From NCBI RefSeq assembly GCF_001677475.2, contig NZ_CP015229.1: a stretch of 64,000 nt of DNA; one strand, 5' to 3'. Both the position numbers and the translations under genes were made by a program. Position 1 is the first letter of the stretch. Each line of letters opens with the position of its first letter. Of this stretch, positions 24,700 through 25,500 are shown in pieces. Below the pieces are notes generated by a model. It did not search any database. It worked only from the letters and a program-made list of their open reading frames with translations, and had not been told where the DNA came from. The DNA comes from Escherichia coli (lineage in GTDB: Bacteria; Pseudomonadota; Gammaproteobacteria; Enterobacterales; Enterobacteriaceae).

Positions 24700-25500
24700 G
24701 CACAACAGGTAAGGGTATTTTGCGACGTCGGAGATCGCCGAGCTTGGCAGAGGGTTCGAATCCCTACGAAGTACCCTTACCGTTGTGATGAATGCGCAGG
24801 CTGATGCGCGAAAGACATTGCAGCTATTGCGGAAAAGAGCTGTTCGGCGGGGCAATTAAACGCCCGTGAGAGTCTGAAATAACCGCAAGCCGGAGATCAG
24901 CACCGGTCATCACAACACAACAGGTAAGGGCATTCTCCCTTATGGGGCTTGGCTTAAATGCATCGAGTGCTCTTACCGTTGTGATGAAGTGCAGCTCTTT
25001 GAAGCAACCAGAAGATAAGCATCTGGCTTCACAACATAAACCGCAGGAACGACCAATAAACGGTAGTCCGTATGGAGAACACCCCGTTGAGGAAGAGGCC
25101 TGGCCGGAACCGTAACCGGCACTACAACGTTGAGAACACTGGCGTAACGGGGTCATATCCCAATCTACGAATAAATGTTGCGTTGCAGCGTGACAACCAG
25201 TGTTCTCAACATTGTGGTGAATGCACAGGCTGATGTGCCGCAACTACAGTAGTGCGCGCTTTGCGGGGCTTGCTACAACCCTGTGTCGGAGTTCAGCACC
25301 GACCATCACAGTTTGATTCTCTGGCATGAGCATAACGCTGAAATAAGTCCAGTCTGGTGCGGCCCGATCACCCGCCGTTAGCTCCACGAAACGGAGCACG
25401 TAACAGGTAAGAGCATTCTCCTGTAACGGGTTCATATCCCAATCTACAGGTCCACCAGGAATGCTCTTTCCGTTGCGGTGAATGCGGCTAAGCGCACGCG
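24700..25500. repeat. four related long hairpin units (tRNA-like fragments?)
   Basis: units at about 24706-24810, 24905-24990, 25115-25250, 25395-25500; 10-16 bp stems such as ggtaagggta/tacccttacc and gttgagaacactgg/ccagtgttctcaac; shared tail gtgatgaatgc. Confidence 0.4.

Follow-up and report, generated by a model that had tools for sequence, protein, structure and literature searches.

Paired hairpin and tRNA-like modules in the ban operon of a P1-type phage-plasmid as candidate RNA-processing cassettes

A stretch of 64,000 nucleotides (nt) from Escherichia coli (contig NZ_CP015229.1 of RefSeq assembly GCF_001677475.2; its full length is termed the window here) represents a P1-type phage-plasmid, whose ban operon harbors an array of long hairpins between the genes for the transfer RNA (tRNA) tRNA-Thr and the protein TciA. 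The array is built from two elements, namely a hairpin of ~20 base pairs (bp), termed H, and a closed module with a tRNA-like layout, termed X, both of which recur in hundreds of phage contigs and exhibit strong covariation. The structures of these elements, their covariation, the strand on which they fold and their homologues in other phages are established here. As judged from sequence comparison, the resulting two-part H-X cassette adjoins tRNA or small-RNA genes in many temperate phages including lambda, and it is in no RNA database.

We consider it slightly better than an even chance, with a probability of about 0.55, that the cassettes serve as RNA-processing punctuation in the C1-controlled ban transcript, in which ribonuclease III (RNase III) would cut H and tRNA-maturation enzymes would handle X. 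Under this reading, a single long plus-strand transcript, which probably originates from the C1-repressed ban promoter, would carry the repeated cassettes. H would most likely constitute the cleavage site of RNase III, while X would most likely be recognized by RNase P at its 5' end and by RNase E at its 3' end. Punctuated in this manner, the transcript would release two tRNAs, the hairpin and X RNAs, as well as a trimmed, structure-capped tciA-ban messenger RNA (mRNA). We infer that both the cleavage of H by RNase III and the processing of X by RNase P and RNase E take place in this phage.

The hairpin family H

A preliminary description of the window, made from its letters alone, had noted four long hairpins between tRNA-Thr and tciA. 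All sequences quoted there are present at their positions, including the arms of H1 (ggtaagggta/tacccttacc) and H3 (gttgagaacactgg/ccagtgttctcaac), and the four folds yield z-scores of -5.6 to -8.3. A fifth hairpin, H0, is located 5' of the tRNA genes and outside the interval described (Table 1). For H0-H4 together, minimum free energies range from -33.6 to -47.9 kcal/mol with z-scores of -5.0 to -8.3, and none of 200 shuffled sequences was as stable. Membership in the H family was assessed with a covariance model (R2) trained on hairpins of other phages, with no P1-like sequences but with the Qin prophage in the training set; all five hairpins belong to the family, H3 as a weak and divergent member, and the plus strand scored above the minus strand every time, by 4-28 bits. 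The number of hairpins in the array thus stands, while the proposed unit size of ~90-130 bp does not: the hairpins measure 68-94 nt and recur with a period of 196-261 nt. Since the direct repeats are spaced by 196, 233 and 261 nt, the repeating unit is the hairpin together with its tail module rather than the hairpin alone. The predicted stems of 19-23 bp with one bulge have the geometry of RNase III substrates (~20 bp, two turns, mostly regular double-stranded RNA).

Across phages, pattern scans of IMG/VR recovered at least 120 stretches for the tail motif and at least 120 for the H 5' arm. The arms are near-constant and the cores mostly unrelated, with 85 different cores in 144 copies. In the conserved lower stem, CACAAC, a bulged A and GGUAAG pair with CUUUCC-GUUGUG (in the family form, CAYAAC/GGWAAG with CUUNCC-GUUGYG), whereas the upper stem covaries freely. 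Of the 19 base pairs, 11 show two-sided changes when 69 distinct arm pairs are compared, a result matched by none of 500 shuffles. The 69 arm pairs were chosen for pairing, and the percentage of paired positions is biased because of this selection; two-sided changes in homologous arms are unaffected by it. Moreover, a U-G occupies one pair in 59 of the 69 stems, G-U pairs are frequent at the base and the bulged A always resides on the 5' arm, so that the fold fits plus-strand RNA only. A U-U mismatch is tolerated in 44 of the 69. H is a conserved RNA structure on the plus strand.

In 109 distinct H contexts, the next element is a canonical X in 47 cases, an X4-type module in 10, a lambda-type module in nine, a tRNA or an element with a tRNA D-arm in nine and an X2-type segment in six, with 28 others. 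A T-run is found at most 30 nt 5' of H in 37 of these contexts, which suggests that cassettes are chained behind terminators. The Rfam families isrJ and int-alpA also occur within a few kb of H in other phage contigs (L164, 2710-2786; L165, 2579-2645; L168, 4276-4338).

The preliminary description had further pointed to T-arm-like elements in some cores, and these are indeed enriched: such hairpins are ~20-30 times commoner in H cores (10 in 2.0 kb) than in the surrounding phage DNA (0.15 per kb). In the window, the motifs are gagggttcgaatccctac (24750-24767), ggggtcatatccc (25149-25161) and the near copy gggttcatatccc (25428-25440), and the core of H1 comprises an anticodon-arm-like hairpin as well as a canonical T-arm (AGGG-UUCGAAU-CCCU). 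A core motif, GGGNUCAUAWCCCAAYCYAC, which consists of a T-loop-like hairpin and a tail, recurs inside H hairpins with quite different stems (window 25146-25168 and 25425-25447; L004, ~2715-2745; L127, ~3700-3720).

The X modules and their likeness to tRNAs

What had been described as a conserved tail behind each hairpin is the 5' end of the X module. The sequence gtgRtgaatgcRcaggctgatg follows H1 and H3 as described, whereas H2 and H4 are followed by divergent versions. The start of X lies 4 nt within the H 3' arm, and the module comprises a 7-bp closing stem (UGUGGUG/CACCACA), an AAU linker, a 5-bp hairpin with the loop GGCUGA in the position of a D-arm, a 40-200 nt middle that is different in almost all phages, and a 5-bp hairpin with the loop AGAUCAGCA, which abuts the closing stem. 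The family is defined by the closing stem, the linker, a first hairpin with a GGNNGA loop and the flush last hairpin, and X1, X3 and, as a divergent member, X4 belong to it. In X1, the closing stem reads UGUGAUG/CAUCACA and the hairpins read GCGCA-GGCUGA-UGCGC and GCCGG-AGAUCAGCA-CCGGU. A covariance model for the family (R1), defined in this analysis, scored the opposite strand of the window's X modules at ~3 bits. Given only 7.4 bits in R1, the X2-like segment is not an X-family member by this model.

Covariation supports the fold, with two-sided changes at 12 of 22 pairs in 43 non-redundant sequences and no match among 500 shuffles. In addition, the loops of the first and the last hairpin are complementary, GCUGA with UCAGC in both X1 and X3; X4 shows no complementarity between these two loops. 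Across the family, this loop-loop helix is 97% paired, although it was not used for sequence selection. Directed scans revealed switches of both loops to GUCGA/UCGAC in three phages, to GCCGA/UCGGC in three and to GUUGA/UCAAC in one, and a fourth phage of the GCCGA type keeps four of the five loop-loop pairs. On these comparative grounds, X is a conserved RNA structure.

A link to tRNAs emerges from the slot behind H. In two phages, a real tRNA-Arg starts at the base after the H 3' arm, and behind it come a DicF-like small RNA and a terminator. In another phage, the element behind H reaches 44.5 bits in the Rfam tRNA model, where 29 bits suffice for a tRNA, with the acceptor stem UGUGUUG/CAGCACA, an anticodon loop of 4 nt and a 57-nt insertion. 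Moreover, variants with the X acceptor stem combine the D-arm-like GCUCAAUGG with a canonical T-arm (GCCGG-UUCGAUU-CCGGC), whose stem is that of the last X hairpin. From these comparisons of variants and of the slot, X is read as an acceptor stem stacked on a T-position stem plus the elbow, devoid of an anticodon arm.

Like tRNA, X would feature a 7-bp acceptor-like stem stacked without a spacer on a 5-bp stem, a 3-nt linker to the first hairpin and an elbow where the first loop meets the last, and it shares its genomic slot with real tRNAs. Unlike tRNA, it has neither an anticodon arm nor a T-loop/D-loop consensus nor an encoded CCA, and its elbow is a 5-bp Watson-Crick kissing helix. The trinucleotide A-C-C follows the closing stem in roughly half of the family, including X4 but not X1 or X3, and the 7+5 bp stack with the elbow is a prediction. 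RNase P contacts the acceptor stem, the T-arm-position stem and the elbow of tRNAs, which are the parts conserved in X. Known tRNA-like structures include the tRNA-like domain of transfer-messenger RNA, the 3' ends of plant viruses and mascRNA.

The suggestion that the hairpins might be degenerate tRNA genes is not borne out. Neither ARAGORN nor the Rfam tRNA model (RF00005, E-value up to 10) matched H1-H4 or X1-X4, and both recovered only the three known tRNAs of the window; the tRNA-like part of the unit is the tail module X. Rfam scans, which had been proposed as a check, likewise left H and X, in the window as in 20 other loci, with no match that reached the gathering score. On the other hand, the suggestion of structured non-coding RNAs is upheld by the covariation, the plus-strand asymmetry and the co-orientation with tRNAs: all 25 tRNAs at most 1.5 kb from an X module lie on the X strand, and the figure for tRNAs at most 400 nt from an H or X feature in the collected loci is 73 of 95, where opposite-strand matches represent near-palindromic H arms. 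A DicF-like small RNA followed by a terminator is often located 3' of X. The orientation of the nearest open reading frame (ORF) around X in IMG/VR loci was too noisy for use.

Among known families, STnc100 (RF02076) comes closest to X4. It matches 25474-25593 with 39.2 bits (E-value 2.3e-6) over model positions 31-147 of 206, which is below the gathering score of 47, so X4 does not qualify as a member; X1 and X3 gave no STnc100 match. STnc100 and X4 have in common the closing stem of 7 bp and, flush with this stem, the last hairpin; R1 also aligns to this interval along the entire model. The literature searched offered no tRNA-like interpretation of STnc100, and likewise nothing on tRNA-like elements combined with DicF or lambdoid phages, nor on the scaffold sequences. 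For YrlA (RF02553), the sole match (25.6 bits, threshold 69) spans two real tRNAs.

Further candidates were rejected. A put-type antiterminator RNA as in HK022 was discarded, given that HK022 carries no H or X motif in 17-32 kb. The M3 RNA of phi80 as kin to small X variants was dismissed, as it is annotated as an oop homologue elsewhere in the genome and has no R1 match. Reading the tail as a box C/D k-turn, a hammerhead, an integron attC site, Chi or a retron was abandoned, as the motifs were inconsistent across the family and no such Rfam matches appeared.

X1, including its variable middle, is ~98% identical in P1-type phages, lambdoid phages (mEp460 and Stx phages) and the Klebsiella-infecting phage IME207 (window 24784-24914; L004, 2504-2634; L005, 2509-2639), which points to a recent horizontal exchange of this 130-nt module.

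Processing sites and alternative explanations

The connection to RNase III rests on two homologues. In Qin, a prophage of E. coli K-12, an H homologue occupies K-12 positions 1649173-1649256 (locus L127, 3674-3757); it carries compensatory differences from the consensus and folds as predicted. The 190-nt DicF precursor from the dicBF operon of Qin owes its 5' end to RNase III (Faubladier 1990; Ragunathan 2023, preprint). With DicF ending at 3935 of the locus, a 190-nt precursor would therefore start near 3746, inside the H 3' arm (3739-3758). The cut site is thus placed from the size of a band and not from primary data, and Qin belongs to the training set of R2. The Qin site shares with the window the lower stem, the bulge and a hypervariable core, and continues with a closed module of ~75 nt and then a small RNA, whereas the window has five hairpins in a row that flank tRNAs, and no DicF seed. 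Between dicF and dicB, Qin also contains a module of the X4/STnc100 type (L127, 3957-4080; R1 30.2 bits); both the window and phage D6 have a module of this type in front of tciA.

In lambda, an H with perfect consensus is located at 44787-44862, 11 nt after tR', and forms the longest stem between pR' and gene S in the late leader; its R2 score on the plus strand exceeds that on the minus strand by ~33 bits. It is followed by a closed X-like module, which represents a subtype different from the window X and yields no R1 match. Together they span 44787-44949 (locus L238, 11788-11950) and overlap the annotated orf-64, which may hence be spurious. As far as its title tells, Daniels et al. (1988) describe sites at which RNase III processes the late transcript of lambda; the late leader in the lambda record J02459 has no RNase III feature.

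As judged by the Qin and lambda homologues, the H hairpins would fit RNase III sites better than degenerate tRNA genes or decoys. Structured elements within polycistronic transcripts include the RNase III hairpins repeated from gene to gene in the T7 early region, the processing stalks of ribosomal RNA and the tRNAs that punctuate mitochondrial transcripts. In those systems, as in the reading favored here, structured elements interspersed in a transcript mark the cut sites of host nucleases. The window cassettes differ in that they fuse two element types, possess hypervariable cores and are spread across unrelated phage groups.

Several observations weigh against processing by RNase III and tRNA-maturation enzymes. 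The near-invariance of the H lower stem is not required by RNase III and may reflect another reader or a recent horizontal spread, and pure punctuation leaves the hypervariable cores and middles as well as the T-arm enrichment in cores unexplained. X fails the tRNA model and lacks a T-loop and an encoded CCA, and three or four phages carry the loop change GAUGA without compensation. With z-scores of -1.1 for X1 and -0.4 for X3, single folds of X are no better than shuffles, so the support for X is comparative throughout. Finally, the Qin cut, being placed by arithmetic from the 190-nt band, is good to ~5 nt, and the title of the lambda study does not confirm that its sites fall in the lambda H.

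A broader version of this reading is conceivable, albeit tentative. X would then represent a phage class of tRNA mimics with a Watson-Crick kissing-helix elbow, which together with the RNase III hairpin would form a portable "plug-and-cut" cassette in temperate phages from P1 to lambda. Such a cassette would serve to insert, express and release interchangeable small RNAs or tRNAs from antiterminated or early transcripts, with the cargo being a repertoire of regulatory RNAs in an arms race.

Alternatively, though we regard this as somewhat doubtful, the H cores and X middles might act in trans as regulatory small RNAs (sRNAs) that pair with host or phage mRNAs, with the stems as scaffolds and release signals, a function compatible with processing punctuation. 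The relation of X4 to STnc100 is in line with this idea, as are the hypervariability of cores and middles beside ~90% conserved scaffolds and the near-identity of X1 across unrelated phages, its middle included. STnc100 is linked with PasD as prophage sRNAs that are reported to be Hfq-associated with distinct seed regions (recent preprint). The present analysis, however, identified no target or seed, the variable regions are mostly paired internally, and real tRNAs replace X in the same slot, a substitution that points to a role of the slot and not of the cargo.

It is improbable that the conserved arms are DNA-level recombination sites for cassette swapping, such as linkers or miniature mobile elements, with incidental RNA folds. 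P1 relatives do diverge by entire modules whose breakpoints fall within the arms, the same X1 resides in myovirus, lambdoid and Klebsiella phage genomes, and the 5' and 3' halves of the scaffold are imperfect inverted repeats of each other. Yet the fold is specific to one strand owing to its G-U pairs and one-sided bulge, the covariance models score the plus strand much higher, the small hairpins and the loop-loop helix each show covariation of their own, and the orientation is always that of the neighboring tRNAs. Conserved arms would in any case be expected to recombine, as a by-product.

More improbable still is a function of X or the T-arm cores as tRNA mimics that soak up tRNA-targeting defense nucleases or tRNA-binding enzymes. 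Phage tRNA genes are a class known to counter tRNA-cleaving defenses, and the array adjoins such genes, X has a tRNA-like layout and T-arm-like hairpins are enriched in the cores. Beyond this likeness and location, nothing was found in favor of the tRNA-derived decoys envisaged in the preliminary description. It is the anticodon loop that known anticodon nucleases read; X has no such loop, and in the relative that matches the tRNA model it measures 4 nt. In addition, no linked defense or anti-defense gene appeared in the contexts seen, and cassettes also occur away from tRNAs, for instance in the lambda late leader.

There is very little to recommend the H 3' arm as a boxA-like signal that would recruit NusB/NusE and confer Rho resistance over ~1.7 kb of untranslated RNA. 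Over 8 nt, the most frequent 3' arms agree with the boxA of rrn (UGCUCUUU) or of lambda nutR (GCUCUUAC), and the tolerated U-U mismatch (44 of 69 stems) retains UUU. Nonetheless, a stable stem hides the motif, normal base pairs of either orientation often take the place of the U-U mismatch, and the match was noticed after the fact. The motif is also lost where stems are fully compensated (for example UGCAAUUAUC and GGCAGCUUUCC), and this loss in some family members likewise weakened a boxA/nut reading of the H 3' arm combined with the first X hairpin.

That the array encodes the minus-strand proteins Plp and Upl, as the P1 annotation has it and as PHROG families built from such annotations echo for an upl-like ORF, is scarcely credible given the sequence constraint, which follows plus-strand RNA pairing, and the annotation data given below.

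Genomic setting and implications

The region is 99.7% identical to phage JL22 and 99.5% to P1, and the P1 annotation was transferred by adding 22649 to the L001 coordinate. By this annotation, the C1-controlled ban promoters lie at ~23849-23894 and are followed by a leader resembling the DicF precursor with an intrinsic terminator, tRNA-Asn, tRNA-Thr, the array, tciA, a tRNA with the anticodon CAU and ban. The array falls within the untranslated stretch of the operon (Table 1).

Table 1. Features of the ban operon region in the window
Feature	Position	Strand	Basis and remarks
ban transcript leader	23930..24080	+	P1 "dicF-like region" annotation; Qin-similar sequence; no Rfam DicF match
Intrinsic terminator closing the ban leader	24054-24080	+	Terminator scan: hairpin and T-run
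H0, long hairpin 5' of the tRNAs	24262..24342	+	R2 38.6 bits; -39.2 kcal/mol, z -5.0
tRNA-Asn (GUU)	24546..24621	+	ARAGORN; Rfam tRNA model 74.5 bits
tRNA-Thr (UGU)	24624..24699	+	ARAGORN; Rfam tRNA model 72.9 bits; one base before the start of H1
H1	24701..24787	+	R2 55.0 bits; fold z -5.6; T-arm scan
X1, closed tRNA-like module, not in P1 itself	24784..24914	+	R1 78.0 bits (plus) versus 3.1 (minus)
H2, not in P1 itself	24916..24983	+	R2 57.9 bits; fold z -6.0; module map
X2-like degenerate module	24980..25127	+	Read from the sequence; starts GUGAUGAAGUGCAG, ends GGCCGGAACCGUAACCGGC-ACUACAAC; fold not significant
H3, divergent, stem GUUGAGAACACUGG, core with GGGGUCAUAUCCC	25123..25216	+	R2 20.9 bits, E-value 1.3e-4; -47.9 kcal/mol, z -8.3
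X3, closed tRNA-like module	25213..25310	+	R1 67.2 bits; minimum-energy fold is a four-arm cloverleaf
H4, core with GGGUUCAUAUCCC	25399..25477	+	R2 52.5 bits; fold z -6.8
X4, divergent, STnc100-like, directly 5' of tciA	25474..25593	+	R1 31.9 bits, full model; fold z -2.8
tciA, first protein gene 3' of the array	25627..26052	+	ORF list; P1 annotation

A simple scan revealed no promoter-like sites on either strand in 23700-26700, and the segment between H0 and tRNA-Asn (24340-24548) has no significant fold. The leader does not belong to DicF by Rfam, given that RF00039 had no match at an E-value up to 10 in 23800-26700. A hairpin resembling the last hairpin of X (GCCGG-AGACGUAC-CCGGC) is situated at 24523-24541, 4 nt 5' of tRNA-Asn, and a similar one at 25103-25121 precedes H3. 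The CAU tRNA (26327-26402) is assigned to Met by ARAGORN, while its P1 homologue is annotated as tRNA-Ile2, which needs lysidine modification. The Dmt methyltransferase (20587-23844) comprises 1085 amino acids (aa) compared with 754 in P1 and contains an intein (~20818-21840) with a LAGLIDADG endonuclease, inserted in the catalytic motif of the C5-methylase domain (GGTP|C); the intein matches the Pfam families Hint_2 (aa 77-126), LAGLIDADG_3 and Intein_splicing (up to aa 418).

P1 records place the minus-strand genes plp and upl over the array, with plp overlapping tRNA-Thr in antisense in P1. The suspicion in the preliminary description that the overlapping ORFs of this region are spurious is in keeping with the comparative data. 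At both its N- and its C-terminus, the plp-like ORF varies among the window, P1, Ro157c2YLVW and D6, and it has no PHROG match; the upl-like ORF matches only PHROG families of unknown function. Of 5426 complete E. coli genomes, 1337 carry parts of the array and at least 352 carry 80% or more of it; among the E. coli plasmids listed from this last group, RefSeq has no gene over it. Neither plp nor upl combines a conserved frame with family support. Instead, the relatives are mosaic, and a comparison among them discloses no conserved protein-coding gene that spans the units: P1 is devoid of X1 and H2, Ro157c2YLVW is devoid of H1 and X1, and D6 carries other modules and a tRNA-Ser. The module breakpoints fall in the conserved arms, and both termini of the plp-like ORF vary as a result. 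In Ro157c2YLVW, an insertion of ~200 nt with a 42-aa ORF resides in the X2-like segment (L002, 2380-2508), and an extra tRNA-Tyr is placed between tRNA-Asn and tRNA-Thr. Going by this sequence comparison, the interval with the array is not protein-coding, and plp and upl are probably spurious.

If the processing reading is true, ~0.9 kb of P1-type genomes would be reinterpreted and two doubtful genes, plp and upl, would be removed from their annotations. A single element family would then tie together the processing of the DicF precursor in Qin, the action of RNase III on the late transcript of lambda, and the sRNAs STnc100/PasD. The conserved scaffolds with free cargo positions would also constitute practical parts for sRNA expression. 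Moreover, if X is handled by RNase P, look-alikes of tRNAs would punctuate the release of sRNAs and mRNAs in phages, a principle of tRNA punctuation that, to our knowledge, is well known from mitochondria and not from phage operons.

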